64,000 nucleotides of DNA from the IMG/VR virus record IMGVR_UViG_3300033066_001283, positions 86,264 through 150,263 of that record; one strand, written 5' to 3'. The stretch's first letter is position 1, and each line of letters starts with the position of its first letter. Below, in pieces: positions 24,666-49,169 of the stretch. Source of the stretch: a virus. Its lineage: Duplodnaviria > Caudoviricetes. The notes beneath the pieces are model-generated. The model did not search any database, was not told the DNA's origin, and saw nothing but the letters and a program-made list of their open reading frames with translations. Made by a program: the position numbers and the translations under genes.

Positions 24666-25942
24666 GCATTGCCAGTATTAATATTGTCTTTTATTGTAAG
24701 TACTTTCTTAACAAAATCTGCCTTAGGTGGTGAAGGTTTCGCTAGTTTTTGATTTAAGAATATCTTTAATCCATTTGAAAGTAACTGGAGTGTTTCTTCT
24801 TTAAGCTGATTTTCTAATGTTCCACCACTAGACTGAAGCAAATAATCTATCATATAGATGTATTGCTTAGTCATTGCATTCTTTTTAGTGTTCAATAGTT
24901 GAAGTTGTCTATCTTCACCAATCTTCTTAAAGTATCCTTCTTTGTATACTAAATCTGCTTCACTAGTTTGAAGTGCACTAACTATTGATCTTAATAACTG
25001 ACTAGAGAATTCTGTGTAATCTTTATTGATATCTACGTCTCCAGATGAGTTTAGAATACTCTCAAACAGTTCTAGATCTCTCATTGTCTTTGATGAGAAA
25101 CCACCAACTATTGCATTATTATATGTAGAGAATAGTTTAGAATATGCTTTAGATAGGTAATTATTAAATACGTTAGATAGAGATACCTTCAATGTTTTAA
25201 AGTTATCAGTATTTAAAAGAAGTGAAGATTGAAGCAAGGTTCTCATTTGTAAAAGAGCTTTATTAACTTGTACTCCACTATCATAGTTATAACTTAGTGA
25301 TCTATACAAATCACCTGTAAATCGATTAACAAAACTATCACTAACCTTCTGTAGTACGTTCTTCTGAATGGAAGATATTTGGGAGTCTAGTATTCCGATA
25401 TACTGTCTCTCCTTGAATAGTGAATATCTTACTACAGGATTTGAGGTTTCAAAATCTGAATAAAGATTATTGTCAGCAAGTACTTCTCTCCAAATCGTGT
25501 CCAAGTTAAGCTTGGTTAATCCTAATTCTGACTTCAAATCATAGAGATCAGAAACTAATGGGGCCCTAGGATCTGGAATTCTAGCATACACTTCTGATTC
25601 AATAGCTAATATCAATTTGGGGCTATAAACTACAACAGGTGTATAATTAGGATCAGCCAGTTTAAATGCGTCAAAGTAGTTAGCTTTAACCATTTCTAGA
25701 TATGCTGTGAATACTTGATCATCAGATACATGGGAGATTTCTTCAATAGCTTTATCAGCATTCTGCATTGCATTATCAGCTAGTGCAGAGATATCTTCTA
25801 GAAGAACTGGTAAAGGGGTATCTTGTGAGGTGTCTAAAGCAGAATAATCTATAGGGGGTATAGATTCAGGTGAAAGATTGCCTTCTTCAGGGTCAACTAC
25901 TTTCTCAATTTTACGCTGTTCAAAATATTTCCCTAAACTCAT
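24662..25942 (-). CDS. Hypothetical helical protein
   Basis: 426-aa ORF between terminase and portal. Confidence 0.55.
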   Translation of the reverse strand: MSLGKYFEQRKIEKVVDPEEGNLSPESIPPIDYSALDTSQDTPLPVLLEDISALADNAMQNADKAIEEISHVSDDQVFTAYLEMVKANYFDAFKLADPNYTPVVVYSPKLILAIESEVYARIPDPRAPLVSDLYDLKSELGLTKLNLDTIWREVLADNNLYSDFETSNPVVRYSLFKERQYIGILDSQISSIQKNVLQKVSDSFVNRFTGDLYRSLSYNYDSGVQVNKALLQMRTLLQSSLLLNTDNFKTLKVSLSNVFNNYLSKAYSKLFSTYNNAIVGGFSSKTMRDLELFESILNSSGDVDINKDYTEFSSQLLRSIVSALQTSEADLVYKEGYFKKIGEDRQLQLLNTKKNAMTKQYIYMIDYLLQSSGGTLENQLKEETLQLLSNGLKIFLNQKLAKPSPPKADFVKKVLTIKDNINTGNA

Positions 25943-28274
25943 CTCTACCTCCTAGTTCTGTTCTATATACACCAGCCCCTGGTATTTCAGTTCTAAAAGT
26001 TTCTACTTGATTCCAGAAACCTTCAATTTGTGGTTCATTTACCACATTGATCTCATCGGCACTTATTCTATGTAGAAAATTATTCCTAGCTACAAATCTC
26101 TTATCTAGTTCATTCTCAAATAAGTACCAAATTCCGTACATAGAGAATAGAGCACAGTCAACAATATGTTCACGGTTGGAAGAGAATCTAGTATATTTCT
26201 CAGTTCTATGTACAACTCTATAAGTTAATAATTGCTCTTTCAATTCTTGATCAGAATTGGGGAATAGAACCTTTCCTTCTTGGAACTTCTTCTGAAGCTG
26301 GCCAACCAAGAATTCCTTCAGCATCTTCTTCTCTTCCATTCCAGTCATAGGATTAAGAACAAGTTCAACTTCATTGAATTGCTTCTTCATAAACATATGA
26401 GCAGGGAATCCTCTCTTCTCTCCTTCTATGAATAAATATTCCCACTGGAATTGACCCATTCCGCCATCTGAGATACAAATATCTATCTGGTATTCATATG
26501 CTAAATCTAAGGCTAACTGACAAGCATTATGGAATGTAAAATCTCCTCTTGGTACTTCTTCTCTATATATGAGAACCATTTCACCTGTATTTTGATTATA
26601 CTGAAAGATGACAATGTTAGTTCCAGCTTGAGCTTTATCCCAATCTATACCCATGATCCTAATTAGATCAGTATTAACTAAGTGTGAACCATACTCCCAA
26701 TCATCTTCAGAAGCTCGTTCAACATCAGCAGCTCTAAATACAGCAGTCTCTTCATCACCAAACTTAAGTAAATATTCAGTCTGGAATTGGTAGGCTGGTG
26801 TAACTGCTCTAATCTGCTCAATTTCTTCTTCACTGTAATCAGGATTAGTATCAATAGGTGCAAATACTTTAGTTTCTGCTACAGGATCAAGTGTGTTTTT
26901 AAATATCTTCTCATAGTAGAGACCAGCAGGAATTCGTACAGTTCCAACAATATAATTTCTAATTCTTGGAGCACGATATTTATCACCATTCATCATAGGT
27001 GAAATAACAGACCATCCATCCTCATTAATCTCTTGAGCTTCTTCAACAAAGATATAATCAGGTGAAAGACCTCTAATCTTAGGTCCTACAATATAACCTT
27101 TAATTTTACTTCCATTAGTGAAAGTTCTAGTAGGTGGAGTTTTAGTATTACCTACTGCTGATCTGATTGATTGGAGAATAGGATTAGCTCCAATCCAGTT
27201 ATCTAAAACATCAAACCACTCTGTAAGCTGTGCCTCAGAGGCACCAAATACTGCAATATCCCTGTTAGGTTCAGTAAGAACATGCCATAAAGCTAATACA
27301 GTTAACGCATAACTATTGTGTAAGACTGTGTTTGTACCAAGGAAATTATGGTCTTCATGCTCTACTGATAAATCATAAACATCCTGTAGACCAGTATGCC
27401 ACATCTCAGTTATCAGTTCCCATCTCCTAGGTCCTCTAACATCTAAGATTTGTGTTTCAATTCCAACTAAATTAAGGAATTGGTTCTGATCAATTACATT
27501 GTCTATGAATAAATTGCCATCTTCATCTACTCTTGATTCTACACCGAATCTTAGAATTAGATGCTGTAAATCAAATGCTAGTAGTCTGTTCCAGAGTAGA
27601 AATCCAACTTCTTTATCTTCTCTAAAGATTCTACCATCTTCTACCCATAATTCTCGTATGAAAGATCTTAAGCATTCTCTAGTTAAGCTAAATACCACAT
27701 CAGGAATGAATTTCCAGTCCATTACTATTGAAACTAAATCTCTTGTTTCATCTAGTGTTTTAACATTCTCACCAAAGACTGGAATAGTAGTTGGAGCAAG
27801 AATATAATCTCCAACTCTAAGTTCTTCTGCTTTAATCCACCCTTTCTTAGCTTCAAATACATTATGATCAGTAGAAAGTGAAATATTATTTCCAGTTCCT
27901 AATTTAAGCTTTAAACATTTCTTCTTACCTGAATCAAACCACTCACAATCAGCCCAAATTAGTTCATTCTTATCGAAATCAAAACATAATGTCTTATTAA
28001 AGCTAGATGCTGATGCAATGGGGACTGGTCTTAGGGTGGTTGGGTGTATAACTAAAGTATCGCCTGCTACACATTTTCCAACACGTCGTGAAGCACAAAT
28101 ATAGGTAAATTTCTTCTTTGTGCTCATAATTTTCTTCTGAACCCAGTTAGCTTCAAATGGAGCTTTTGTTTGTGGCTCAACCAAGAATGTTTCTGCCCAG
28201 GTTACAGGGTTTTGAATGATCTTAGCCAGTTTTCTTCTTTGCTCTGGCGTAAGTTCACTAAGATCTTCTATCAT
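25920..28274 (-). CDS. terL: Terminase large subunit, intein-interrupted
   Basis: Walker A ASRRVGK|S after splicing, IRGLSPDYIFVEEAQ Walker B, MGIDWD nuclease motif, EHIVDCA. Confidence 0.9.
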   Translation of the reverse strand: MIEDLSELTPEQRRKLAKIIQNPVTWAETFLVEPQTKAPFEANWVQKKIMSTKKKFTYICASRRVGKCVAGDTLVIHPTTLRPVPIASASSFNKTLCFDFDKNELIWADCEWFDSGKKKCLKLKLGTGNNISLSTDHNVFEAKKGWIKAEELRVGDYILAPTTIPVFGENVKTLDETRDLVSIVMDWKFIPDVVFSLTRECLRSFIRELWVEDGRIFREDKEVGFLLWNRLLAFDLQHLILRFGVESRVDEDGNLFIDNVIDQNQFLNLVGIETQILDVRGPRRWELITEMWHTGLQDVYDLSVEHEDHNFLGTNTVLHNSYALTVLALWHVLTEPNRDIAVFGASEAQLTEWFDVLDNWIGANPILQSIRSAVGNTKTPPTRTFTNGSKIKGYIVGPKIRGLSPDYIFVEEAQEINEDGWSVISPMMNGDKYRAPRIRNYIVGTVRIPAGLYYEKIFKNTLDPVAETKVFAPIDTNPDYSEEEIEQIRAVTPAYQFQTEYLLKFGDEETAVFRAADVERASEDDWEYGSHLVNTDLIRIMGIDWDKAQAGTNIVIFQYNQNTGEMVLIYREEVPRGDFTFHNACQLALDLAYEYQIDICISDGGMGQFQWEYLFIEGEKRGFPAHMFMKKQFNEVELVLNPMTGMEEKKMLKEFLVGQLQKKFQEGKVLFPNSDQELKEQLLTYRVVHRTEKYTRFSSNREHIVDCALFSMYGIWYLFENELDKRFVARNNFLHRISADEINVVNEPQIEGFWNQVETFRTEIPGAGVYRTELGGRDEFREIF
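27315..28073 (-). mobile_element. Intein (253 aa) in terminase P-loop with reduced endonuclease domain
   Basis: GK|CVAGDTLV ... STDHNVF ... VYDLSVEHEDHNFLGTNTVLHN|S; only one LAGLIDADG-like motif (RELWVEDG) visible. Confidence 0.92.
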
Positions 28275-35091: not shown

Positions 35092-36102
35092 TTAATCCTT
35101 CTTAATACTCCAACCATAGTAAGTTGGAAACTTACCCTTCTTCAATTGATACAAGCCATTTCTTGGAATATTAAATTGTTTAGCTAACTGAGAGATATTA
35201 TTAGTTACATGCTCATTACCGTTGGGATCAATGAATGTGGGGTGTATTGTCTCTCCATTCTTTATTCTTACAGAGTTTTCAGCATTTATTTTCGCTATTC
35301 TTTCACTCTTTTCAGATGAGTAAATCTTTTCTTTTGCTGCTTTACGAGGTTTAGGTTGCCATATCTTTTCTCTTTCACCTGGAGGTAAAGAATATCCCTT
35401 GTAGGTTTTGCGCGTCCCATTAATAACTCTTCTTAGTCTTTTTTGCTCTAAATTATTCTCTTCACAAAATAAACTTAAATTTCTAACTGTAAAAGTGGTA
35501 TTCTGAAAACAAAGTTGATACTCTTTTGAGATTGGTTTATTTTCCCTGTATTCTCTGGAAATATTTTCTTTTTTATATTTCTCTCGACTCTTAATAACCT
35601 TATCAGAAATAGTATACCGTCTGCCGTAATCTTTACTTCTCTCTAAAGATTCTAATCTTTTAGCATTTCGATATTCAATCCTTTCAGAGTCACTCATACT
35701 AGATAGCTTCTTGCGTTTTTCTTGCCCTTCCTTAACCTTAGTACTAAATTCAGTTTCAGAAATTCTAATTTTATAATTAGGTAGTAGTCCTGGCTTTAGT
35801 AGTATATTATACATTTTGTCTTTAGTACATAGACTTAAGTAATATTCTTCTTTTTCGTTCAGCTGCTCAATCGAGCACTCCTCAATAATTCCCGGTTTAA
35901 AGTATTCTTTATCTTTATTCCATGCGTTCTGAAGATATGCATTAGAGTGTACCCCTTTCAATAAATCACATCTGTGATCTGTAAATCGTCTAGGTATATG
36001 TTTAGATTGTCCTATATACATTTTATCATTTAATGTGTTGTATAGACAATAGATGCCAGAAACATTTGGAACTTCCTTCCATTCGTATAATGAGATATTC
36101 AT
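35092..36102 (-). CDS. GIY-YIG homing endonuclease with C-terminal NUMOD-like repeats
   Basis: SGIYCLYNTLNDKMYIGQS..IPRRFTDH...HSNAYLQNAWNK...E..Y...YN. Confidence 0.9.
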   Translation of the reverse strand: MNISLYEWKEVPNVSGIYCLYNTLNDKMYIGQSKHIPRRFTDHRCDLLKGVHSNAYLQNAWNKDKEYFKPGIIEECSIEQLNEKEEYYLSLCTKDKMYNILLKPGLLPNYKIRISETEFSTKVKEGQEKRKKLSSMSDSERIEYRNAKRLESLERSKDYGRRYTISDKVIKSREKYKKENISREYRENKPISKEYQLCFQNTTFTVRNLSLFCEENNLEQKRLRRVINGTRKTYKGYSLPPGEREKIWQPKPRKAAKEKIYSSEKSERIAKINAENSVRIKNGETIHPTFIDPNGNEHVTNNISQLAKQFNIPRNGLYQLKKGKFPTYYGWSIKKD

Positions 36103-36275
36103 ATAAAAGAATGTAGATCATCCCCTAAAAATCAAGGCATGTCTGAGTTGGTAATAGACGGGGGCATAGTCGGAATTAGACCCACGAGGGTCGTTTTTAT
36201 GGGCAATCATGCCTATAGGGAATCATCCCAGTGATGCTGTGCTCAACAGCTTTTACCTTTGTAGGAGGTAATATC

Positions 36276-36614
36276 GTGTTTAAAATGACAGTAGCCACTA
36301 TGGCAGCGATCATTCTGCGTAGTAAGGACATGGCAAGTCCTTCCATCGCTCTCCGTTCAGGCGAGCTTGTCCTCATTGATGGAGATATCAATGACGAGAA
36401 CCTTCTCATCGTGGATGCGGTGGACACCTCGTTCTGGGAACAGTGGTTGCCCAGTAATATCCCGTTCCGACATACCTTTGGAACGTTCGAGTCTCAAATG
36501 AAGCGGTACGTGAGCCGCTTCAATCGAACTGGTGTAAAGAATGTCCTCATGGCATTGTCGTATCATGAGGTGCAGTTGAAGAGGAGGTATCCAGAAGAAC
36601 TGTTTAAAGACTGA
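36276..36614 (+). CDS. Early hypothetical protein
   Basis: Start revised to GTG 36276 after TGTAGGAGGTA RBS. Confidence 0.6.
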   Translation: MFKMTVATMAAIILRSKDMASPSIALRSGELVLIDGDINDENLLIVDAVDTSFWEQWLPSNIPFRHTFGTFESQMKRYVSRFNRTGVKNVLMALSYHEVQLKRRYPEELFKD

Positions 36615-36681
36615 GCCGAAAGCCAGGGATTTCTCCCTGGTTATACATAGGGTATGCTCCTATGTACTGATGAGGCAGCAC
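36615..36681 (+). ncRNA. Hammerhead ribozyme, type II (copy 1)
   Basis: GCC-GAAA-[GCCAGGGA tttc TCCCTGGT]-TA-[TACATAGG gtatgct CCTATGTA]-CTGATGA-GGC-AGCA. Full core, stems I-III, loop I TGCT complementary to 3' AGCA; predicted cleavage after A36643. Confidence 0.92.
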
Positions 36682-36718
36682 TCTCACAACGACCTTTACC
36701 TTTGTAGGAGGTAATATT

Positions 36719-37033
36719 ATGCTATTGACATTCACCATTCCATCTACTGGGCACATACGCTCAGTGGATCTGAGGGACGAGCTTGTGCATGAGTACAAGC
36801 TTTCAATCCAAGAGATGAGCAGGTACTTTAGCCCTGCTCTTGACAGACAGCGGAGGGCAGCACACAATAAGGTGGCTGCTTCTCTTGTCCCCATTCTCAA
36901 GGAAGAACTTCCTGAGGAGGATGATGCTTCTCTCACTCAAGAGGCCCGTAGGATAGTGACGGGTTTTTTAGAAGAATCCCTGACTGGCCGGAGTATGGTC
37001 AGGGAGCTCCTGGACTCCGGTTTACTGCGTTAG
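36719..37033 (+). CDS. Early hypothetical protein
   Basis: TGTAGGAGGTA RBS. Confidence 0.65.
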   Translation: MLLTFTIPSTGHIRSVDLRDELVHEYKLSIQEMSRYFSPALDRQRRAAHNKVAASLVPILKEELPEEDDASLTQEARRIVTGFLEESLTGRSMVRELLDSGLLR

Positions 37034-37040
37034 TTTGAGT

Positions 37041-37097
37041 ATTGCGGTGAACAGTGCCTAACTGTATGGTGTGTAAATCACCTATCTGTAGGAGGTA
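37041..37097 (+). ncRNA. Unidentified conserved intergenic structured motif B (copy 1)
   Basis: TGCGGTGAACAGTGCCTAACTGTATGGTGTGTAAATCACC, near-identical to copy 2. Confidence 0.6.
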
Positions 37098-37105
37098 AGT
37101 AAATC

Positions 37106-37372
37106 ATGCGTTCAATGAACAAAGGAAGTTGGGTGTATTTACCAACTCTTATCACTCTTTCGATGCTCCAGGAGCAGAAGGACAGACACTACACCTTCCA
37201 CCCAGAGGTCTTCTTCGAGGACCTCAATCCTGGGTGGACTGAGCAGGTTCTCGGGTTCATGGCGAAGAACCCAACGTGCTCGATGAGCATCGATGCACGG
37301 TATCATCAGGACAGCTACTCTGATGGGGAAACCCTTAGAGGAGAAGGCATGGTGTATTGTCAGACTAGATAA
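37106..37372 (+). CDS. Early hypothetical protein
   Basis: TGTAGGAGGTA RBS. Confidence 0.65.
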   Translation: MRSMNKGSWVYLPTLITLSMLQEQKDRHYTFHPEVFFEDLNPGWTEQVLGFMAKNPTCSMSIDARYHQDSYSDGETLRGEGMVYCQTR

Positions 37373-37440
37373 TGCCGAAAGCCAGGGATTTCTCCCTGGT
37401 TATACATAGGGTATGCTCCTATGTACTGATGAGGCAGCAC
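37373..37440 (+). ncRNA. Hammerhead ribozyme, type II (copy 2)
   Basis: Core identical to copy 1, stem II TGCC/GGCA; begins immediately after stop codon; predicted cleavage after A37402. Confidence 0.92.
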
Positions 37441-37474
37441 TCTCACAACGTTTGTTACCGTAGGAGGTAATATA

Positions 37475-37636
37475 GTGAATAGAAGAACAAAACTCATCAT
37501 CGTTAGTGCTATCATAGTAGCACTATGCCTGCTGGATGCAGCAGGTGTCTGCATCACTGACCCTCGCTTTGAGGCGGGGAAGCAGGATAGGGCTCAAGCA
37601 GCCCGCATTCTTGAGGAAGCAAGCACAACACATTGA
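37475..37636 (+). CDS. Small membrane-anchored early protein (53 aa, not in ORF track)
   Basis: GTAGGAGGTA RBS then GTG; MNRRTKLIIVSAIIVALCLLDAAGVCITDPRFEAGKQDRAQAARILEEASTTH. Confidence 0.6.
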   Translation: MNRRTKLIIVSAIIVALCLLDAAGVCITDPRFEAGKQDRAQAARILEEASTTH

Positions 37637-37640
37637 TTGC

Positions 37641-37695
37641 TTGTGGTGAACAGTGCCTAACTGCATGGTGTGTAAATCACCTAATTGTAGGAGTA
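37641..37695 (+). ncRNA. Motif B (copy 2)
   Basis: TGTGGTGAACAGTGCCTAACTGCATGGTGTGTAAATCACC. Confidence 0.6.
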
Positions 37696-37700
37696 ATAAA

Positions 37701-38144
37701 ATGAAAACATTAGTAGTAGCAGTGTGGGCGTGGCTTTCGGCCAAGTACCAAGGTCTTGTCTATGGCAGGACTGAGAAGTGTGAGTGGTGCGGGGAGCCGT
37801 GCGTTCCCAACGCTCACCATATGTGTGTGCACTGCCTTGAACAGGAGTTTGGCACTCCTGAAGACTGGCAGGCAGAGTGGGAAGAGGACTCGCTTCGACA
37901 GAAGATCGAGGACGTTCTGGATCCTGAAGAGTTGGAGCATTCTAATACTCAGGATCAAGGAGAGGGATGGGGAGTCCACACCTGCTGCAAGTGTGGTGGA
38001 AAGACTCATCCTGATGGTCCTGCATCTGTGTGGGATCCTTTCACCGATGAGACTTGGTGTGAGGATTGCTGGTATAAGGAGAATCCTCCCAGCGAACAGC
38101 TCATAAAGAGTCTGCCGAAGTGTGAGGTAGACTTCGAAGACTAA
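37701..38144 (+). CDS. Early Cys-rich (Zn-binding) acidic protein
   Basis: Start revised to ATG 37701 after TGTAGGAG; CEWC, CVHC, CCKC, CEDC pairs. Confidence 0.6.
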   Translation: MKTLVVAVWAWLSAKYQGLVYGRTEKCEWCGEPCVPNAHHMCVHCLEQEFGTPEDWQAEWEEDSLRQKIEDVLDPEELEHSNTQDQGEGWGVHTCCKCGGKTHPDGPASVWDPFTDETWCEDCWYKENPPSEQLIKSLPKCEVDFED

Positions 38145-38148
38145 TGAG

Positions 38149-38202
38149 TATATGGTGGACGTGCCTAACGTAGCAGAAGGATTATCTGCATTTGTAGGAG
38201 TA
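38149..38202 (+). ncRNA. Motif B (divergent copy 3)
   Basis: TATGGTGGACGTGCCTAACGTA then GCAGA-7nt-TCTGC hairpin, then TTTGTAGGAG. Confidence 0.5.
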
Positions 38203-38210
38203 GTAAGAAC

Positions 38211-39569
38211 ATGAAACTGTTAAGTTTAGAACAAGTGTGGAAGATGCGGACGAAGCATCAGTTGGAGTGGTTGAACTCAATCCCTGACCTGAAGACGAAG
38301 AAGTGTCAGCGTGTTGTTGTAAGAGGAAACAAGACGATTTCAATCGTCGTGACCATGGGATTCCGAGATTCGGAATCAAAGGTCCGTCTATTCAAGATCG
38401 AACACAGATTTAAGATTGATGGTACCTACCTTGGCTCGTACTTTGAAGGAATAGATCCTTCTGCCTTCACGCGTCAGGTTCTGAGGCTGGTGAGATTATC
38501 ACTCCCAGGGTTGCACTCAAAAGTGCAACATGGGTATGTTATGGATAAACTCTGCCACCCATTCGATCTAGCGGATTTTTCCAAGGAAATTGGTATCAGC
38601 GCCTGCCCGTGGGGTGTTAAGACCGTTCTGCTGTGGCAGGATCTTGGATTCTATACTAGGTATAGTGTCAATGATCTCTACCTTCCAGTTAAACATGGAT
38701 TGTTACGCAATCTAAAACGAGAAGATCATGGAGGATTAGAGTACATGATGCGAAAGGGAGGCAAGTATATTCGCTCCCTAGGAAAACAAGGAAGTATTAT
38801 GGTATGGAGAGCTGTAACAGCAATGGATGCTGCTAGAATCTCTCCCGGCCTCCCCTTCCGAGTGGCCACAATGTGGTTAACTGTAGTAAGCCATAGACGG
38901 AACGAAGAATCTCTCCCAATATGGGCAAGGTTTATCTTCCTTCACTGGGAGCAGAACTACAGAGCCATTCTTCGTAGAACGAAGAATGCAGCTGGAGTGC
39001 ATCGCTCACGAGATATAGATGCAGTGCTCAATGATCTGTATGATTACTTGGGTGCACATTACGAAGAAGCTCTACCAGATGCTGCATTCGAGGTCTTGTT
39101 CCAAAGATCAGAAGCGTGGCATCGCGTGTTAAGAGAGAATCGGCGTGCTCTTAATGATATAGACTATGGTCCAAATCTTGAGAAGGACACTGCTCTTCCT
39201 TGGAATGGATTGGAAGGAACATTCTCTATTGGCGAATTCGAGTTTACTCGAATTACAACGTATGGAGATCTCTTGGATGAGGGCGACATTATGCGGCATT
39301 GTGTAGCTACATATGTCAGGTATTGTCTAACAGGCAATACATCCATTTGGAGTATGAGACTCAAGGTACTAAAGGGCAAGAAATGTATGCGTGTTGCCAC
39401 ACTTGAAGTAGCGCATGCAGGAGTGTCTGAGTTGCGACAGGCTCGAACTGCCTGTAATGGCTCACTAAACGACGAACAAAGAGCCGCAACCAGAGCCTTT
39501 GTATCCTGGCTTAACAATCAACCACTTAGTGTGGGTGAGAGACTTAGAGCATTGAATGAGGTAAACTAA
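38211..39569 (+). CDS. PcfJ-like domain protein
   Basis: C-terminal S..WH ... LLDEGDIMRHCVATY ... SIWSMR ... ATLEV ... Q....N pattern typical of PcfJ family. Confidence 0.7.
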   Translation: MKLLSLEQVWKMRTKHQLEWLNSIPDLKTKKCQRVVVRGNKTISIVVTMGFRDSESKVRLFKIEHRFKIDGTYLGSYFEGIDPSAFTRQVLRLVRLSLPGLHSKVQHGYVMDKLCHPFDLADFSKEIGISACPWGVKTVLLWQDLGFYTRYSVNDLYLPVKHGLLRNLKREDHGGLEYMMRKGGKYIRSLGKQGSIMVWRAVTAMDAARISPGLPFRVATMWLTVVSHRRNEESLPIWARFIFLHWEQNYRAILRRTKNAAGVHRSRDIDAVLNDLYDYLGAHYEEALPDAAFEVLFQRSEAWHRVLRENRRALNDIDYGPNLEKDTALPWNGLEGTFSIGEFEFTRITTYGDLLDEGDIMRHCVATYVRYCLTGNTSIWSMRLKVLKGKKCMRVATLEVAHAGVSELRQARTACNGSLNDEQRAATRAFVSWLNNQPLSVGERLRALNEVN

Positions 39570-39898
39570 TGAACAAGAATAAGAAGCTCCAGATGGAGCG
39601 GATCATCGCTGAGGTACGAGCAAACAAAGTGCTCGTTATTGATGTCAAGGACTTTGAAGCCTATCGAGGTGTTGTCCGCCTTGGTACCCTCAAGGCGAGG
39701 GAAGCAAAGAGGGAGTGGAAAGCTCCCAAGTTGATTGTCAAAGCTCAGACAGCTGATCCTGAAGTTCTCAGGAAGTTGGCTGACAGAGGAGCTAGCAGAA
39801 TTATCTGCTCAGTTCCCAAGAACAAGAAACGAGAGATCATCCAGTCTCTCGTCAAGAACCCTGCACGATGTTGGGTGCAGGTAATGGAGGTAAAATAA
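39569..39898 (+). CDS. Basic hypothetical protein
   Basis: GAGG RBS, translationally coupled. Confidence 0.55.
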   Translation: MNKNKKLQMERIIAEVRANKVLVIDVKDFEAYRGVVRLGTLKAREAKREWKAPKLIVKAQTADPEVLRKLADRGASRIICSVPKNKKREIIQSLVKNPARCWVQVMEVK

Positions 39899-40164
39899 TG
39901 CCACTACTCATTCAAGTGTTCAGGAAGGGGCAGAATGAGCCCCTTGCCTTGCAGGATGTTGATATGGAGGTGAGAAATCACTTCCAATATCACAAGGACC
40001 AAGAGACAAAGTTTATTTGTAGTTGGCCCTCAACTCTCACATATAGGCTTGCATTCAAGCCTATGGATGAGGTACTATCTGATCTAAGAGCAGACGGATT
40101 AGTCACAGTCGCTGAGGTATGTGAGTATATCAGCGATAATTATGACATCAGAGTATGGAGGTAA
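39898..40164 (+). CDS. Hypothetical protein
   Basis: Start revised to ATG 39898 after GGAGG. Confidence 0.55.
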   Translation: MPLLIQVFRKGQNEPLALQDVDMEVRNHFQYHKDQETKFICSWPSTLTYRLAFKPMDEVLSDLRADGLVTVAEVCEYISDNYDIRVWR

Positions 40165-40167
40165 ATC

Positions 40168-40485
40168 ATGTGGAAATTGATCAGGATTGAGCTAGGTAGT
40201 CGAAAGACTGTCCTGCTCAAGAAGCAGTTCGCTACTGAGAGAGATGCTCAGAAGCATGCCAATCGACTCAATGGTATGTATGCCCATCGCTATGGTGATG
40301 GGTTCTACCATGTACAACTCCTATCCCCTTCTCAGTGGAGAGAGCCACAAGTGGTGAAGACCAAGTGGTTCATCGGAGATAAGACAGGGCAGATAATCGC
40401 CTCATTTGATCAGGAAGAGAAAGCTACCCAGTTCTTAGATGATAACTGGGAACAGGACTGGACCAAATGGCAGGGCCCAGCCTAG
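40168..40485 (+). CDS. Hypothetical protein
   Basis: GGAGG RBS. Confidence 0.55.
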   Translation: MWKLIRIELGSRKTVLLKKQFATERDAQKHANRLNGMYAHRYGDGFYHVQLLSPSQWREPQVVKTKWFIGDKTGQIIASFDQEEKATQFLDDNWEQDWTKWQGPA

Positions 40486-40586
40486 CATCACTGTTCTATT
40501 CCCCTACTGGATTAGCCTCCGGTAGGGGAACGCCTGCCGTGGATTGCCGCCTAGGTGGTGATACCAAGTTGTAGGAGATTACAAAT

Positions 40587-40826
40587 ATGAAACAGCCTAT
40601 CGTAATTACAGCAGAGCGCAAAGCCGAACTGAAGAGGATTGTCAAGCGGGCAATCGAGACCGGAGCTACGAGCTTCACCGTGAACAGCCCAGCAGAATGG
40701 ACGTTCTGCGTGCGTGCTATCCAACACGAGCGGTCTAAGGGGCAGTACATCCCCAATAAGCAGATCCTTACCCGGACACAGCTCCGGGATGACGCGCTCG
40801 AAGACTTCGATTACAATCCAAGCTAG
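40587..40826 (+). CDS. Early hypothetical protein
   Basis: TTGTAGGAG RBS. Confidence 0.55.
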   Translation: MKQPIVITAERKAELKRIVKRAIETGATSFTVNSPAEWTFCVRAIQHERSKGQYIPNKQILTRTQLRDDALEDFDYNPS

Positions 40827-40998
40827 TGCGTGTTCGGGGCCAACCTAACGGTTGGCCCCCCTTTTCTTGTGGCCTAACAAACCTCCGGTAGACTGCCTGT
40901 TTGGTAGTTTTGGGGCTAATTACGCTCTTGTGTGGTGTTGCCACATTGGGCACGGCCTGAGGTTTGGGGTGTTAGTGCCCCCATTGTAGGAAGGTAAT

Positions 40999-41346
40999 AT
41001 GCTGAAAATTATCAAGAATCGACGTGTGCGTACAGCACCAGTGACCAAGCCCGTAAAGCTTACCACTACAGACGAGTTTGATGCTCTAATGAGCAGACTT
41101 GAGGAGCTTTCTAAGCAACTTGTTATGCCTGCTTCCCCGAAGAACCTCACTCCTGAAGATATCAGGGAAGGGACTAAGAAGATGATGATCGGAACTCTGT
41201 TCATTACAGAGATGGAAGGCAATACGCAGGAAGAGCAGATTGCCATGTTCATCAGAATTCGCTCTCAGCTAGTTCCGTATGAGCTTGACTGGTTCAGGCT
41301 CGGAGCTGAGGCGATCATGGAATACAGACGGCTATGTTCGGCCTAG
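40999..41346 (+). CDS. Early hypothetical protein
   Basis: TTGTAGGAAGGTA RBS. Confidence 0.55.
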   Translation: MLKIIKNRRVRTAPVTKPVKLTTTDEFDALMSRLEELSKQLVMPASPKNLTPEDIREGTKKMMIGTLFITEMEGNTQEEQIAMFIRIRSQLVPYELDWFRLGAEAIMEYRRLCSA

Positions 41347-41531
41347 GACGACCTGTAGACAGACGTGGAGAGTATTCACGTCCACTGACAATCAAAGAAT
41401 GTGAAGAACTGATGGCATTCTTTGAGTTGGCTCTACAGCAAACTGGCATGCCACAGTTCTGGTATGCCCTTGCCAAGAAGAAGAGGGATGAGGTTATAGA
41501 GGCCTACTCCCACTTAATGGAGGCACAATGA
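41334..41531 (+). CDS. Hypothetical protein
   Basis: Overlapping operon ORF. Confidence 0.45.
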   Translation: MFGLGRPVDRRGEYSRPLTIKECEELMAFFELALQQTGMPQFWYALAKKKRDEVIEAYSHLMEAQ

Positions 41532-41893
41532 GTAGTGCAAGTCTACGAAAGACCATTAAAGAGCAGGGAACTATCTCTGTCTCTGAACTAGCGAAGGCTC
41601 AGCTTGAGAAGTTCAACGCTGAGCGAATCGGCTACATAAGGGCCGCTAAAGAGGTCCTTAAGAAAGACAGGTATTCTGAGATTTCTCAGAATGTTGAAGT
41701 AACAGTCGATGGCGAAGGACTGTTGCTAACTTTGAAGGTTCGCCCACAACCAGTCACAGAGGCTCTCATAAGAGAGATCTATGATACAATTCGAAGTGCA
41801 CAAGCAGCTGCTGATGCGGCTGCTGATGAGGGCTTAATGGAAAGAGTCCTTGACGAAAACAAGAAAATCATAGGAGCAATAAATGGCGAGTAA
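41528..41893 (+). CDS. Hypothetical protein
   Basis: GGAGG RBS. Confidence 0.55.
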   Translation: MSSASLRKTIKEQGTISVSELAKAQLEKFNAERIGYIRAAKEVLKKDRYSEISQNVEVTVDGEGLLLTLKVRPQPVTEALIREIYDTIRSAQAAADAAADEGLMERVLDENKKIIGAINGE

Positions 41894-42359
41894 ATTCATC
41901 AACCCTTCGACACTCTGGCAGAAAAAGCTGAAGAATTGCAGCACTGCTGATCAAGATGCAGCTCAGGAGATCCTCAGTGAAATCCACAGCAAGCCCCTTA
42001 CCATGCAGAAATGGGGCGATGGATCTCCACTCTTCTTCAGAAATGGCTCTACCAGCTCAAAGCATCGAGTACCATCGGTGCCAGTTCGTTACCTGATCGA
42101 AACTGGATTGGCCGGTGTTACCATCGACAATCACGTGGTGCCACTCGAGAAACCAATCGAGTACGAAACACCCGGCGTAACCAAGCCTACGACTCAACAG
42201 GAATCTTCCGTTGGAAGAGTCATCAATCTGTCTACGCAAGAAAGACAGTTCATTGAGCTATTACGAATCTTGCCATCGCACGTCAAGAAGGAGATCACGG
42301 AATACGCTAACACCGAAGCCCGCGCCTTCATGAAGGAGATTAACAGTCTATTGTGCTGA
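41883..42359 (+). CDS. Hypothetical protein
   Basis: AGGAG RBS. Confidence 0.55.
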   Translation: MASKFINPSTLWQKKLKNCSTADQDAAQEILSEIHSKPLTMQKWGDGSPLFFRNGSTSSKHRVPSVPVRYLIETGLAGVTIDNHVVPLEKPIEYETPGVTKPTTQQESSVGRVINLSTQERQFIELLRILPSHVKKEITEYANTEARAFMKEINSLLC

Positions 42360-42505
42360 GAATGGTCGGTATGACAATCTACATCATCGCGTGTGTAATC
42401 CTCGGATTCATCTGCGCGATATTATTCATCGAGCCCCTGATCAATAAGTATCAGGAGCACAAAGCAGCAAAAGCCTAAGACACTACTGTAGGAGGTAGTA
42501 AAATC

Positions 42506-45082
42506 ATGAAATTCAAATTCACGAAGAAGGTAGATCCTTCATTTGAGTACTTTGACTGGAACGGAATTAAGGTTCCGTACAGTACAAACCAGAAGCTGGT
42601 ATTGGACGGTAAGGAGACAGTTCCTGATAAGCCACATATTAGCTACCTGAAACGTGGCAACATCCAAGCAGCCTGCGTTAGCATGGCTCGTGAAGCCCTT
42701 ATCCTATTGATGGGGGAAATGACATTTCAAGTAAGAGGATGGGATGCTCCAACAGCAGTCTCAGCCTCAGTTCCAGAAGGAGCCATTTATCTTGACAAGC
42801 GTGGCGTTCCAGTAGTCAATGAAGACTGGGGCGATCAGCACGCACTTGATGCTGATGGAGATAGGTGCTCCATCCATCGGCATAAGGATAATCCAGGACA
42901 AGCTGTACTGGTGAAATATCCTGTTACCAGCACCCCAATCACTGGTCTTATCTCCAAAGATGGCATCTTGGAGAAATTCACTGGCCTTACAGTGGAAGAT
43001 AGTCAGAAGCTGATATCTCAGTACAATACTTCAGGTGAAGTGTATGGAATTCCAGGTGATGGAATCAGTGTCGAGTTCGGCAAGAATACTCCTTATCAAG
43101 AGGAGAAGTTCTTCCTGAAGGGGCATACACCAGCACCGGTAGGCCTACTCACCAATGGCTGGAATACTTACGAGCTAGATAAAGCTCAAGCCAAGCGTGG
43201 ATGGTCTAGGAAGATTGACAGCATGTTCAATAACTATCAGAGATATGAAGATATTGAACTGGGCGGTCTGAAGGCTGCGCGTAAGGATGAAGCATCACTA
43301 GCAGACAGTGACATCACTAAGCTTGATTATGCCCTTGCATATCAGCATGCTTGGGCATTGACTGGCACAGGTAGACTTGCAGGTTTAAGTGAGCAGGCTC
43401 TTGAATGGTTCCCAGCTCTTGATGAGAAGGGCCTTAAGCAGGTGCTTACTGACATCAGCAAACTGAATGTGGATTTCAGGAAGAGAGAAGAGAATGATTT
43501 CGAGCGTCGTAAACCTACGCTACGAACATCTCCATTCCTGAAGAAGCTTTTGCCTGCCAGGTACTACTATAAGGGCAAGCTGATTGAGAACCCAGATCAT
43601 ATAACTAAAGGTGGACTGATAAAGTTCTATGAACTAAAGGCTATGCCTGGAGCTCCATCTGCAGTGGTAATCTGGCTTCAGAGACCAGAAGGCATCCCAG
43701 TTGCTCTTACGGACGTGAAACGTAAGGATCACGATCCAGAAGGCTTAGGCTTTGCATACGTTCTTTATCCTGTCTGGGATAACAGAGAACTCTACAGCAA
43801 TGACAAGACTGGCGATCAAAGTCTAATGGTCAGTGCCAAATCATGCTGGGTGCATCCTATCGACCATCTCGAGAAGTGCCTACGTCAGTTCGACAATAAG
43901 GTGATCAATCCTGAAAATGGCGTAGTAGTTTCAAGATTCCCTGAATCCTGGGAAGAGTGGAACTGGCCAAGCAGAGCAGGCAAGATCAAGAGACTGCAGA
44001 AGTTCCTCACTGACTATTGTGGCGAGTATGGTGACGTAGTAAACTGCACCATGCGTAATCGACGTCCTGAGCTACTTGAGCATAATGTCAAGTTCGCAAG
44101 AGCTTCAGCAGTGATCGATTATGGTGGAATAGAACTTACACCAGAGCAAATGTGGAAGATTGCATCTAAAGCGTCTTCTAAGCTACGACTCTGCTTAGGT
44201 GGCAATAAGCAGACCAAGAGTCACGTCAGGAAATACTGTATTGCTGATGAATCTGGTACACCTGCATGGGGAGCGTTTAAGACTAAATGCCATCCAGCTA
44301 GGCAGGGAAAGCAAAGAGCACAGCTTGTGCATGCACTGAAGGAAGTGAGAATGCGTGTGGCAATTGTCAACTGCAACACTCTCACTCAATGCTTCATCAC
44401 ACCCTCTGGTATTGAGAAACAAACCACATCATCAGGATTCCTGCCAATGTGTCTCAACTCACTAGGAGACGCTCAAGCATATCTGGACAGTCTCACTGAT
44501 CTGGAGAAGGCTAATATGCCTGATAACTTCTTGAAGGGAACCGAGTTTACAACTTGGACTGGACAGAAGGTAACAGTCTGGGTAGTAAATCCCAGAAATA
44601 CCGTTCAGGTAGGTAAGCTGATCTCAACACGAGCAGAGAAGTTCGTACCAAGAGTGATTGGGCCTGTAGTTGACCTTGATGAGTTCAATGCCAACATGGA
44701 GAATGAGCAGATCGATTTGGTCATTCCAGTCACTGAACTGATCAATAAGGGTGCACATACCAATATGCTTGAGAAGTGCACCGAACATATGATTCACTTC
44801 AAGTCATATGTGTCTGAAGATCTCACTCAGCTAGGTGATATCACCATTCCAGCAATGGTTGGAGAATTCATCTACTTCAGAAGTGGTGCTCACTCAGAGA
44901 ATACACCACCACGATGGCGAACATGCCGATACAAAGGAATTGATGGGCATGTAATCATTCGACAAATTGAAAAGCTCTATGGCAAAGAATGGGAACAAGA
45001 AGTGAACATTCTTCCTGCACTTGAGCTTCTTGACTCAATGAAGAAGATCATGAAACGTTGTGGCATCAAATTCAACCGCTAG
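42506..45082 (+). CDS. Putative single-subunit two-barrel RNA polymerase (candidate non-virion RNAP)
   Basis: HALDADGDRC (D115-D119, nt 42848-42862); VGLLTN; beta-like GKLISTRAEK (K704..K712, same spacing as GDKxxxRHGNKG), IDLVIP, PAMVGEFIY. Confidence 0.7.
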   Translation: MKFKFTKKVDPSFEYFDWNGIKVPYSTNQKLVLDGKETVPDKPHISYLKRGNIQAACVSMAREALILLMGEMTFQVRGWDAPTAVSASVPEGAIYLDKRGVPVVNEDWGDQHALDADGDRCSIHRHKDNPGQAVLVKYPVTSTPITGLISKDGILEKFTGLTVEDSQKLISQYNTSGEVYGIPGDGISVEFGKNTPYQEEKFFLKGHTPAPVGLLTNGWNTYELDKAQAKRGWSRKIDSMFNNYQRYEDIELGGLKAARKDEASLADSDITKLDYALAYQHAWALTGTGRLAGLSEQALEWFPALDEKGLKQVLTDISKLNVDFRKREENDFERRKPTLRTSPFLKKLLPARYYYKGKLIENPDHITKGGLIKFYELKAMPGAPSAVVIWLQRPEGIPVALTDVKRKDHDPEGLGFAYVLYPVWDNRELYSNDKTGDQSLMVSAKSCWVHPIDHLEKCLRQFDNKVINPENGVVVSRFPESWEEWNWPSRAGKIKRLQKFLTDYCGEYGDVVNCTMRNRRPELLEHNVKFARASAVIDYGGIELTPEQMWKIASKASSKLRLCLGGNKQTKSHVRKYCIADESGTPAWGAFKTKCHPARQGKQRAQLVHALKEVRMRVAIVNCNTLTQCFITPSGIEKQTTSSGFLPMCLNSLGDAQAYLDSLTDLEKANMPDNFLKGTEFTTWTGQKVTVWVVNPRNTVQVGKLISTRAEKFVPRVIGPVVDLDEFNANMENEQIDLVIPVTELINKGAHTNMLEKCTEHMIHFKSYVSEDLTQLGDITIPAMVGEFIYFRSGAHSENTPPRWRTCRYKGIDGHVIIRQIEKLYGKEWEQEVNILPALELLDSMKKIMKRCGIKFNR

Positions 45083-45182
45083 GGTTTTGTGGTTGTTTTT
45101 GGGCTCTTGTGAGCTATGTCCAATGTTTTAGTGATGAGGTTTGGGGGTAACCCCGTTAACAACAATTAGGAAACACAACATC

Positions 45183-45992
45183 ATGTCATTCAGAGAACAA
45201 TTGAAGCAGACAACTCAGATCAAGCCTGAGGTCATAGACCTCGGTATCGATCACGACGTACTTGCTACTTCTGGAAGCACACCACTTGCAGTAGCAGTCA
45301 TTCCTCTCAAGCAGAAATTCGAAGGGAAAGTCTTTGAGTATTCTACCCCTATTAAAGGGGGCGGATCTCAACGGATTCCCTACGAAGTCTGGGCCGCCAA
45401 GTTCATCGCCCTTAAAAGCCGGTCTACTAAGATGGGCGAAAAGGGCGAACCCACAACTCTCGTATACGTTGGATTCCTTGGGAAGCCAATCAAGCGAGAC
45501 GACAAAACTGGGGAACCGCTGAAGGATAAAGATGGCAAGTTCATCTATGACGACCATGACATCCCGGAAGAGATGTGCATGGAAATCGATGGTGACCTTC
45601 TTCCAAATCTATGCGAGTTTAGACTTGCATGGGGCGTCAACTTCCAAAAGAGCGCAACCAAGCGGCTTAGTGTGCCAGAGATCAAGATCGGCATGAGCAG
45701 AAATGTTCCAGCCGACCGCAAATCTGGAGACAAAGGACAAACCTATCTTAACGAAGATTGGGACGTAATCCCATTCGGTCGTGGATTGCTCCATTGGGCA
45801 CACAATCACTTGCTAGTTGGTATGGAAGATGGGAATCAGACCCTGACAACTATCTACAATTCCATTCCACAGGAAGAAGTGCGTGACAAGAATGCTGAGG
45901 GCGACTCCGTAGCTGGCGATATCATTGATCCCGAAAAGGTCAATGAGGCCGCAGACGCAGCTGAGCCAGTCGGAGTGTCAGTCGACGAGTAA
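45183..45992 (+). CDS. Hypothetical protein, possible ssDNA-binding protein
   Basis: Beta-rich, acidic C-terminal tail; follows RNAP-like gene; start revised to ATG 45183. Confidence 0.35.
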   Translation: MSFREQLKQTTQIKPEVIDLGIDHDVLATSGSTPLAVAVIPLKQKFEGKVFEYSTPIKGGGSQRIPYEVWAAKFIALKSRSTKMGEKGEPTTLVYVGFLGKPIKRDDKTGEPLKDKDGKFIYDDHDIPEEMCMEIDGDLLPNLCEFRLAWGVNFQKSATKRLSVPEIKIGMSRNVPADRKSGDKGQTYLNEDWDVIPFGRGLLHWAHNHLLVGMEDGNQTLTTIYNSIPQEEVRDKNAEGDSVAGDIIDPEKVNEAADAAEPVGVSVDE

Positions 45993-46430
45993 GTGAAGAG
46001 GAATGGGGAAGTTCGAAAGGGCTCTCCCAAGCATCAGCAACTCAAACAGCAAACGAAACAGATGCACAAAACGATACCGGTCTAGGATAGGTATCGGGGA
46101 AGGGAAGTGTCTAGGATACAACCCTTCCCAAAAAATTTCTTATCGCTCGAAATCTAATTGCTAGGCAATGAAATTAAGAGTGATGAGGAATGGGAGTACA
46201 GCAAGTGGATGCTCGAAAGACCGTCTGACTTGTGTCTTACTCTCTTACTTTTGCCTGTACAGAGTCGAAGGAGAAATCCGGAGCAAAACAGGCCTGGAAG
46301 CCATCAGAGAAAGCAGGTTAACATAGATCTAGGCGGAGAGACCCCGCTAGGGCAGCAATGCCCTAAAGACGACCACGTGCGTCCCAGGATCCTTAAGATT
46401 TTTACCCCGTCCAACACAAGCAGAGCCATA

Positions 46431-46456
46431 GGGGAGCAATACGCTCCCCACTTTTT
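46431..46456 (+). terminator. Intrinsic terminator
   Basis: GGGGAGC aatac GCTCCCC a CTTTTT. Confidence 0.7.
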
Positions 46457-46459
46457 CGA

Positions 46460-46550
46460 TTTCTACCTTCACTACCTCCTACAACAGTGACACGGTAGGG
46501 GGTCAGGCAACTGGCCCCAACCAATTTCAGGGTGCAATCCCACCTATCGT
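46460..46550 (+). ncRNA. Candidate small RNA presenting an anti-RBS loop
   Basis: TCACT-ACCTCCTACAAC-AGTGA hairpin, then GGGGTCAG gcaa CTGGCCCC and GGG tgcaat CCC. Confidence 0.55.
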
Positions 46551-47048
46551 AGATCCTCTCCCCAAAAGAAGAAACACGCACCCTGATTCAATTTCCGGCC
46601 AGCAATGGACGGAGAGTACTCTAACAGGAAATCCCTGGTATGAACTGTTAGAAGAATAATATCAGGGCAAAGGACCCATGTGATAGAGACCTTGTGGTGA
46701 TGAAATGGGATTAAACCACAAACTTGGCCAAGGTTGAATGGTCTTAACAAGATGCTAAGTCAACAATACGCTCTTGGGATTTAATGTTGATTTCCAACAC
46801 AGCCTGCTGCACTGCAAAGTGTCTCAGGTCCTTGCGGAAGCAGGAACATATGCAAACTCACACTGTGAACTGAGTAAGCGGGCTTCTCTTTTGCGTCGAG
46901 CGAGAGGAAGCTGACTCAACATAGTTGAAGAAGCGAGATGACTAAATCACAGGCTTAAGATCGGTATCCTTTCGGGATGCTTTAGTCAAGAAGAAGTGAC
47001 GAATTATTCTGTCTGAGCGAAGAATCAACTGATGGTTGCGGGATCTAC
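46549..47048 (+). ncRNA. Candidate ~500-nt structured non-coding RNA
   Basis: Closing helix GTAGATCC/GGATCTAC, many nested stems, crossing helices, no credible ORF. Confidence 0.5.
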
Positions 47049-47348
47049 CCTATTTAAATCTCGAATCATTTTTGGCGCCAATACGCCCTTAGTCTGGAAA
47101 TCTGAGGGATCAATCAAACTGGTAATTTCCAACTACTAGGAGTACACAGAATGGTGTGTACTCAGCGCCATCAGAGCAATTGCCGAAGCTCTGGAGTTGA
47201 ACATACGTAATACATGTGCATGTCTAAATACAGGTATGTACTGGGTAGTCAAACCGAGAAAATATTGAGAGGCGTTTTAACCAATAACGTAGTTTCAGTC
47301 ATGACTGAAACTGGATGTGTTCAACTTACCCTATTTCCAATCAAAGCC

Positions 47349-48101
47349 ATGAAACTAATACTTGCCAGTATAATGATCGTTTCTGTTGCCCACGCAAATT
47401 CCTTTGGGAAAATCATGTGCGTAGGTGACTCACTAACTGCAGGTGGTGCTAATCCACCAGCATATAGACAGGAGCTGTTCAATTTACTGACAAGCGGGTT
47501 AGATACTTTCCAATTCGTTGGCCCAAATGACTGGGGCTACTTTGGATCAGTACATGCTAACATTCATGCAGGTTTCGGTGGATGGAGTAGTTACCAATTG
47601 TGTAATGGTAACACATTATCTCCTTCTTCTGGTAAATTATCTGATTGGTTGAGTTTCGCTCCCAATACAGTAATACTCATGTGTGGTACCAATGATTACT
47701 GGGATAATTATTCCGGCATTGGCTACTGGGATACAGTTTCACAGAATAACCTTTGGAATAACATGGTTCCAAGGTACACAAATCTACTGAATCAAGTATT
47801 CAGTAGCGGTGCTTCGCTTGTCGTCTTTGTTGCTCCACCAAAGTATCTTGCTGATAATTATGGGCCGAGATATGAGTATCTCCATCAATTATCAGTAGTT
47901 GTAAAGAGTGTTTATACGACATTCTATCAACAACGTAAGAACATCAAGTTCGTTGATCTATGGTCAGTAGCATCTGATCAACTTGGAGTCGACCTAGGTT
48001 CTGATAACATTCACTGGAACAATAATGGTGCTAAGAAAGCAGCAACATGTATTTATGGTGGGATGAAAAGAACATTAGGGATGAGGATAGAGACACAATG
48101 A
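47349..48101 (+). CDS. Secreted SGNH/GDSL hydrolase (esterase)
   Basis: Signal peptide MKLILASIMIVSVAHA, GDSLT, MCGTND, DNIHWN; start revised to 47349. Confidence 0.85.
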   Translation: MKLILASIMIVSVAHANSFGKIMCVGDSLTAGGANPPAYRQELFNLLTSGLDTFQFVGPNDWGYFGSVHANIHAGFGGWSSYQLCNGNTLSPSSGKLSDWLSFAPNTVILMCGTNDYWDNYSGIGYWDTVSQNNLWNNMVPRYTNLLNQVFSSGASLVVFVAPPKYLADNYGPRYEYLHQLSVVVKSVYTTFYQQRKNIKFVDLWSVASDQLGVDLGSDNIHWNNNGAKKAATCIYGGMKRTLGMRIETQ

Positions 48102-48283
48102 TTATCTACTCAGTTATTTCCTTTTGCATCTTTATTCTTATCCATCTCTGGGAAGTGGATAATAATGAAGACTATGGAAACGCACAAGTGGCACTACTCT
48201 TCATTTTCGCTCTCCTCTGGCCCTTTATAGTCATCTCAGCAATACTAGGCTGGTATAAAACCAAGAAAGAAGCCCTAATTTAG
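48098..48283 (+). CDS. Small two-TM membrane protein
   Basis: Hydrophobic helices, ALLWPF motif; start revised to the in-frame ATG. Confidence 0.45.
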   Translation: MIIYSVISFCIFILIHLWEVDNNEDYGNAQVALLFIFALLWPFIVISAILGWYKTKKEALI

Positions 48284-48298
48284 ACTCATGACAATTTT

Positions 48299-48394
48299 GG
48301 CAGTACCACCAGGGAGTTTGGCAGGCCTGGCTCCGCCTCATAAGCGGTTTCGATTTATTCGACGTTATTGGTTCGATTCCAATTGCTGCCACCA
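48299..48394 (+). tRNA. Atypical tRNA with CAU anticodon (Met/Ile2-like), 96 nt
   Basis: Acceptor GGCAGTA/TGCTGCC-A-CCA, anticodon arm CCGC-CTCATAA-GCGG, T arm ATTGG-TTCGATT-CCAAT; enlarged D arm and long variable arm. Confidence 0.75.
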
Positions 48395-48470
48395 AAGATT
48401 GCACCATTGCCTTACCCCCTACGGGTTGGGATAGATATCCTTTGGTGCAATACAATTTGTGGTGAATCTA

Positions 48471-48872
48471 ATGAGCACAACACGCAGAGAAATCCTTAAA
48501 GCAGCACCACTTGCTCTTCTTAGTGGTGGTTTCGCCATTCCCCTTCTATCAGCCTTCACTGAAGATGATTTGAAGAAAGCTGAGAAAGGAAAGGTGATTA
48601 AGCAAGAAGCCAAAGCCGTTAAGGTGCATCCAAGCCTCCACAAATATTCACCATCCGAAGCATTTGTTTGGCCATATCCGACAGAACCTATTCTTACCCT
48701 AGGTCCTGCCTTTCTCAATGAGCTTCCATGTGAAATTATTGGCCTACATCTCTTCAGCCCGGTGACCGTGGCCAAGCAGCCAAAACATAGTAGTTACTAT
48801 TTGTTGAGATTTCAATCTATTATCCAAATAGATAATACTCATCAGACGTTCATCCTGTCACAAACAATTTAA
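48471..48872 (+). CDS. Protein with twin-arginine (Tat)-like signal
   Basis: MSTTRREILKAAPLALLSGG. Confidence 0.5.
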   Translation: MSTTRREILKAAPLALLSGGFAIPLLSAFTEDDLKKAEKGKVIKQEAKAVKVHPSLHKYSPSEAFVWPYPTEPILTLGPAFLNELPCEIIGLHLFSPVTVAKQPKHSSYYLLRFQSIIQIDNTHQTFILSQTI

Positions 48873-48876
48873 TTTT

Positions 48877-48952
48877 CCCCCGGTAGCTCAGTGAATAGAG
48901 CGGGTGGTTTCTACCCACTAGGTCAGGGGTTTGAGTCCCTTCTGGGGGGCCA
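48877..48952 (+). tRNA. tRNA-Arg(UCU)
   Basis: Cloverleaf CCCCCGG/CTGGGGG, anticodon loop TT-TCT-AC, encoded CCA. Confidence 0.88.
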
Positions 48953-49169
48953 AAATGTTCAAGTTGAACGCTACTCTGAGGCATCAGAAGTGCTAGGCTT
49001 GATCTACTCCACAACAATAGAGAACTGGTTGTGGCTCAAAGTATAAACATGGAACATCGGGTTTGATTATGGTTGCAACCGTAATCAAGCTGCAGACGCA
49101 TCATATAGACCAGTATACTGGGTATGATGTCTTAGTCTGACTAATCAATTTTCTACATTGAGGGTATCT

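Follow-up and report, generated by a model that had tools for sequence, protein, structure and literature searches.

A pair of identical type II hammerhead ribozyme candidates between small genes of an uncultivated phage

Two copies of one short sequence lie in a block of small genes of a viral genome, each of them between the stop codon of one gene and the ribosome binding site of the next. The locus raises two questions: what these copies are, and whether a messenger RNA transcribed through them would cut itself into gene-sized pieces. The stretch of DNA analysed, referred to as the window, is 64,000 nucleotides long and represents the final 64 kb of a linear IMG/VR virus record of 150,263 bp, for which a completeness of about 80% was estimated.

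Minus-strand structural genes occupy positions 1-36102 of the window, among them genes for a capsid protein, for an intein-containing large terminase and for a homing endonuclease of the GIY-YIG type; the plus-strand genes run from 36276 onward. These capsid, terminase and homing endonuclease genes constitute the phage context of the repeated sequence. The large terminase (25920-28274, minus strand) has a LAGLIDADG domain in its intein, and the free-standing GIY-YIG/NUMOD homing endonuclease (35092-36102, minus strand) adjoins the strand switch, beside the block that holds the two copies. The G+C content, about 36-38% over the minus-strand structural genes (1-36000), steps up to 44-48% in the plus-strand block (36000-54000) and falls back to about 34% beyond 54 kb; judged by these steps, the genome looks like a mosaic.

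The capsid protein shows 24-29% identity to its counterparts in a Moorella phage and in Bacillus jumbo phages of the 0305phi8-36 group, a distant similarity that is consistent with the strong Shine-Dalgarno sites found in the block. IMG/VR scans with the PcfJ-like protein, an 858-aa protein and the capsid revealed no close relative, and megablast against cultured phages returned no related phage. The record derives from a large, uncultivated phage without close relatives, probably one of Firmicutes. A match to the Rfam type II hammerhead family (RF02276, Hammerhead_II) was absent from each of four cultured jumbo phages whose capsid is distantly similar, so that the ribozymes are not a trait of the lineage.

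DNA sequence analysis of the plus-strand block identified five consecutive small ORFs, each preceded at the proper distance by GGAGG. Gene 1 (36276..36614, 112 aa) starts with GTG; gene 2 (36719..37033, 104 aa) has its GGAGG at 36707-36711; gene 3 (37106..37372, 88 aa) follows; gene 4 (37475..37636, 53 aa), which also starts with GTG, encodes a hydrophobic stretch and has its GGAGG at 37463-37467; the fifth ORF spans 37701-38144. Searches of Pfam and PHROG gave no match for any of the five. We do not regard the two minus-strand ORFs lying over the repeats, at 36604-36936 and 37360-37557, as genes: they have no Shine-Dalgarno sequence and overlap the plus-strand ORFs that carry GGAGG. No convincing promoter was found in a search of the block. 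An early timing of its expression may be presumed from two things only, the position by the divergent switch and the small orphan genes.

The two copies, at 36615-36691 and 37374-37450 on the plus strand, are 100% identical over 77 nt and 759 nt apart, and a third copy could not be found in the whole record. The identity runs from the exact first base of what we read as stem II to 11 nt past the pseudoknot, and the genes flanking the two copies are unrelated. Perfect identity points to a recent duplication or gene conversion and also means that the two copies count as a single observation. The first-pass annotation, made by reading the sequence, had described a direct repeat of about 75 nt at 36615 and 37374, lying in sense between genes, starting right after a stop codon and ending about 20 nt before the next ribosome binding site. 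The layout agrees well with that description: both copies are in the orientation of the five plus-strand ORFs, the first starts 0 nt after the TGA of gene 1 and the second 1 nt after the TAA of gene 3, and the GGAGG of the following gene (gene 2 or gene 4) lies 26 nt from the end of the pseudoknot and 15 nt from the end of the repeat.

The same annotation had assigned the repeats to the type II hammerhead ribozymes, with a complete core, a short stem II, strong stems I and III, a pseudoknot between loop I and the 3' tail and cleavage after A36643 and A37402, and our re-reading of the sequence arrived at the same elements and the same positions. In the first copy, of which the ribozyme proper covers 36615-36680, the order is as follows: the 5' strand of stem II, GCC (36615-17); GAAA (36618-21); stem III, nine pairs closed by a UUUC loop (36621-29 with 36634-42); the cleavage nucleotide A17 (36643); stem I, eight Watson-Crick pairs closed by the 7-nt loop GUAUGCU (36644-51 with 36659-66); CUGAUGA (36667-73); and the 3' strand of stem II, GGC (36674-76). 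In the second copy, in which every position is shifted by +759, GAAA is found at 37377-80 and CUGAUGA at 37426-32. Stems I and III are thus capped by loops and stem II is open, with GAAA, stem III, the cleavage site, stem I and CUGAUGA in the order of the type II topology.

All invariant positions of the core are intact in both copies (C3 U4 G5 A6 N7 G8 A9 and G12 A13 A14), and the three pairs adjacent to the core, G10.1-C11.1, U1.1-A2.1 and A15.1-U16.1, are present. The last of these, A36621-U36642, belongs to stem III, which also contains a G15.2-U16.2 wobble. Stem II has 3 bp in the first copy and a possible fourth pair in the second; stem I has 8 bp, or 9 if a terminal G-U is counted. The pseudoknot is formed by the last four of the seven loop I nucleotides, UGCU (36655-58), and the tail AGCA (36677-80). 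Its 4 bp stand in the register seen in other viral type II members, the last loop nucleotide pairing with the first tail nucleotide; the final U of UGCU is also claimed by the terminal G-U pair of stem I, which must open for the pseudoknot to form. Folding of the 86-nt element and of the two 221-nt contexts kept stems III and I, in the centroid as well as in the minimum-free-energy structure. Cleavage is predicted at A36643/U36644 and A37402/U37403, after a UUA triplet, which satisfies the NUH rule but is atypical. Judged by core, topology and pseudoknot, the assignment of the two repeats to the type II hammerheads is supported as far as sequence analysis reaches.

A lenient type II descriptor (the core, stem II of at least 2 bp, stems I and III of at least 4 bp, loops of at most 12 nt) found just these two sites on both strands of the 150-kb record and none in 300 dinucleotide-preserving shuffles. 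In E-value mode the whole of the RF02276 model could be aligned to both copies, with scores of 27.7 and 26.0 bits; the E-values were 0.0075 and 0.021 for a 2.5-kb stretch searched against all families and 1.1e-4 and 2.9e-4 for this single family against the whole genome. In the Rfam comparison that the first-pass annotation had proposed, the alignment was end to end but the scores stayed below the gathering cut-off of 37 bits, a curated value that is operational and not a structural feature. Used at the gathering threshold, Rfam returned two tRNAs only, and no ribozyme, from the window and the remaining 86 kb. A further CUGAUGA-hairpin-GAAA string at 48810-48845 on the minus strand, beside a tRNA gene (48877-48949), was rejected as a hammerhead: its hairpin is separated from GAAA by additional bases that a hammerhead core does not accommodate, and it had no Rfam match.

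The loss of score was located mainly at positions 15.2-16.2 and 17. The window copies share with the members of RF02276 the core, the short open stem II, the capped stems I and III, the pseudoknot and the bacterial or phage setting, and differ from the usual members in having UUA and the G15.2-U16.2 wobble instead of GUC and a C-G pair, in scores of 26-28 bits and in a 7-nt loop I of which four nucleotides pair. For a comparison with other viral sites, IMG/VR was searched with a pattern in which only GCCGAAA and CUGAUGAGGCAGC were fixed, 40-62 nt apart. The GCCGAAA/CUGAUGAGGCAGC pattern matched 23 contigs, and all but one or two of the sites fold as type II hammerheads, with stem sequences unrelated to one another. 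A loop I/tail pseudoknot of 4-8 bp can be formed in 17 of the 23. The cleavage triplet is GUC in 22 of these other sites and AUC in the remaining one, as against UUA in the window.

A covariance model (R1) seeded on four of the pattern sites gave 42 matches. In the resulting alignment 98.7% of the cells were paired, compared with 31-63% in shuffled and slid controls, and changes on both sides were seen in 16 of the 17 pairs. Covariation is therefore strong at the level of the family, but does not come from orthologues of the window element: the searches of IMG/VR and of the metagenome set yielded no relative of the phage or of the window variant, and hence no orthologous copy with compensatory changes. 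A metagenome pattern that retained G15.2 and UUA had a single match, judged to be due to chance as it lies inside a coding region. Pair 15.2-16.2 is CG in 32 rows of the family alignment, UA in 3 and GU only in the two window copies. For a second model (R2), 34 of the R1 matches were used and the window copies left out; it scored these copies at 46.2 and 45.4 bits (E about 1e-11); the scores are inflated, since the seeds had been chosen by a pattern taken from the window element, and stem II and the first bases of the tail contribute by construction. Over the whole 150-kb record, with E up to 10, R2 matched nothing besides the two window copies.

The atypical triplet and the core-adjacent G-U pair, together with an Rfam score below the cut-off, speak for a rival reading, in which the element is a decayed or catalytically very slow derivative of a hammerhead. 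Its two strong hairpins, or a use as leader or recombination cassette, would then be the reason why it was kept or recently duplicated, and instead of cleaving itself it would stabilise the RNA, offer a site to a host nuclease or form a joint for gene shuffling. Non-GUC sites are generally slower or less active, although the NUH rule admits UUA (PMC2238771), and two copies without a single difference may stem from a duplication too recent for selection to have acted on. Moreover, the leader found downstream of the repeats (CAAC...GGAGGTAATAT; family D2) is also present before gene 1, where there is no ribozyme, indicating that leader cassettes duplicate in this block. We nevertheless hold a derivative of this kind to be unlikely. 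Every invariant position of its core and all three adjacent pairs have been retained, the complement that forms the pseudoknot stands in the right register and the triplet obeys the cleavage rule. The score itself is not disqualifying: other viral type II ribozymes reach 38-62 bits, and three members of one array, with only 29.5-34.4 bits, are also below 37.

The leader cassette, common to genes 1, 2 and 4, is located at 36244-36274, 36687-36717 and 37443-37473 on the plus strand and consists of CAAC, a T-rich ACC stretch and then GTAGGAGGTAATAT. Upstream of gene 1 a plain hairpin (36236-36250) takes the place that the hammerhead has before genes 2 and 4. The exchange of hairpin for hammerhead in front of a common leader suggests that leader modules have been duplicated or exchanged within the block.

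The gaps in which no hammerhead is found contain a different repeat, D3, of which three plus-strand copies (37042-37094, 37641-37693 and about 38150-38200) alternate with the ribozymes; a start codon follows each copy at a distance of about 45 nt. Its sequence reads GGTG[A/G]AC..GTGCCTAAC.., then TGTAGGAG. D3 is not a hammerhead, matched no Rfam family and, used as a pattern, had no match in IMG/VR. As a sigma-70 promoter it was not flagged by a consensus scan, and as a stable RNA structure it was rejected on account of its weak fold, with z-scores of about -0.2. RNAalifold detected no compensatory pair among the three copies, a number too small to show covariation. D3 may represent a promoter specific to this phage, or else an RNA with a regulatory function.

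Analysis of the IMG/VR matches showed that unrelated contigs carry two to five type II hammerheads on one strand, at gene-sized spacing. All four of the examples that follow are on the minus strand: five ribozymes within 3 kb in L010 (205-3256), four in L025 (10714-13484), four in L008 (6101-8520) and three or four in L006 (10845-13179). Each ribozyme of these arrays lies in the gap from the stop codon of one ORF to the Shine-Dalgarno sequence and start codon of the next, and a stop codon directly abutting the ribozyme was seen in many other members of the family as well. The arrays in L010, L025 and L008 resemble the window in their location on the coding strand, in gaps from stop codon to ribosome binding site and among small genes of unknown function. 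They differ in that the window has only two copies, which are identical, whereas the copies of the other arrays usually differ in their stems; three copies in L010 have the same stem III and different stems I. The carrier is a further difference, the window being part of an uncultivated phage genome of 150 kb or more.

Natural type II hammerheads were discovered by Perreault et al. (2011, PMC3088659), who reported that stem II is frequently just 2 bp long, that most members have a pseudoknot of at least 4 bp and that this contact between loop I and the 3' tail is required for fast cleavage. In prophages, multiple hammerheads were found often to flank single genes or short gene blocks (their Fig. 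3), and the role proposed was the conversion of long phage transcripts into gene-length mRNAs. The two ribozymes of the window, which flank genes 2 and 3, fit this clustered arrangement of phages and prophages. The arrangement is not new, the same layout having been described in 2011 (PMC3088659) and being common in phage DNA. Precedent for activity in cells is provided by Desulfovibrio vulgaris, in which in vivo cleavage of three type II hammerheads near phage-like genes was detected by cyPhyRNA-seq (PMC8782182). These are ribozymes of the same type in a phage-like neighbourhood; they are single chromosomal sites and experimentally proven, and the window copies are predicted from sequence.

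The arrangement in the window is the one for which the mRNA-processing hypothesis was published, and the similar layout of many viral contigs is consistent with it. We consider it likely, from the intact core and its placement, that a plus-strand polycistronic RNA of this block self-cleaves after A17 at both sites. The course of events would be the following. Transcription would pass from the stop codon of the upstream gene straight into the ribozyme. The RNA would fold, forming stems III and I and the 3 bp of stem II, and loop I would dock on the 3' tail through the 4-bp pseudoknot. The backbone would then cut itself after A17 (36643 and 37402). The upstream message would end with the 9-bp hairpin of stem III and a 2',3'-cyclic phosphate; the downstream message would begin with a 5'-OH at the 8-bp hairpin of stem I, about 60 nt before the Shine-Dalgarno sequence. 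The likely effect would be to uncouple neighbouring cistrons with no host nuclease involved, each cistron gaining defined, structured ends and, with these, its own context of stability and translation. We infer that the sites are transcribed through, that they are cleaved in vivo, that this takes place early and that the fate of the mRNA is affected; independence of the cut from host nucleases is of the same standing, and in the first-pass annotation both it and the early timing had been put too firmly.

The early polycistronic mRNA of phage T7 is cut by host RNase III, which acts on double-stranded RNA and leaves 5'-phosphate ends. T7 processing and the cleavage proposed here have in common that the cuts fall between cistrons and that the fragments have structured ends. 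The catalyst in T7 is a host protein, whereas in the present case the RNA would cut itself and leave 5'-OH and 2',3'-cyclic phosphate ends.

The abutting stop codons, in the window and in many other family members, may also be taken to mean that cleavage is conditional, and that it reports on, or is gated by, translation of the upstream gene: stem II, GAAA and part of stem III would be hidden under a ribosome that terminates at the stop codon. An observation made within gene 3 touches on the second copy. The heptamer TCATCAG (37304-37310, plus strand), 70 nt upstream, is the exact complement of the CUGAUGA of hammerhead 2 and is paired with this core in the predicted 221-nt fold (z = -3.8). 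Pairing of UCAUCAG with the core could add gating at this copy; the helix, known from the fold prediction, may reflect chance or a translation-sensitive off-state. We regard gated cleavage as improbable all the same. Close spacing may reflect mere compaction of the genome, the first copy has no such complement upstream and a family-wide test for a competing helix between core and 3' tail gave no excess: the mean was 4.39 bp in 36 family members against 4.02 bp for shuffled tails, and this helix was rejected as a general feature.

Identical hammerheads in direct orientation around a unit are also the architecture of retrozymes and viroid-like RNAs, in which sense the two ribozymes might excise a 759-nt RNA (36644-37402, containing gene 2, D3 and gene 3) that a host ligase would circularise by joining the 5'-OH and 2',3'-cyclic phosphate ends, with one complete hammerhead being rebuilt; if true, the circle would be a phage-encoded circular mRNA or regulatory RNA. 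Circular or spliced products were raised as a possibility for phage arrays by Perreault et al. (2011, PMC3088659); we think excision very improbable, as these authors looked for such products and detected none, a search of the 150-kb record (about 80% complete) for RtcB and RNA ligase domains was negative, and the occurrence elsewhere of three to five ribozymes of differing sequence around unrelated genes fits processing better.

Processing of a polycistronic message by self-cleavage is the most likely reading. The unusual points of the locus are only four: UUA together with a G-U pair next to the core, a pseudoknot of the minimum 4 bp, an Rfam score under the threshold and the alternation with D3. 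The window opens no new question and gives no special handle on the role of arrays of this kind. What the locus adds is a further clear case of phage operons punctuated by hammerheads, this time in a large phage that is uncultivated and has no close relatives. The element is in addition an unusual natural variant, with a UUA site, G-U at 15.2-16.2, a pseudoknot of minimal length and a score below the Rfam cut-off, and as such it would help to calibrate searches for ribozymes and could serve as a substrate in tests.
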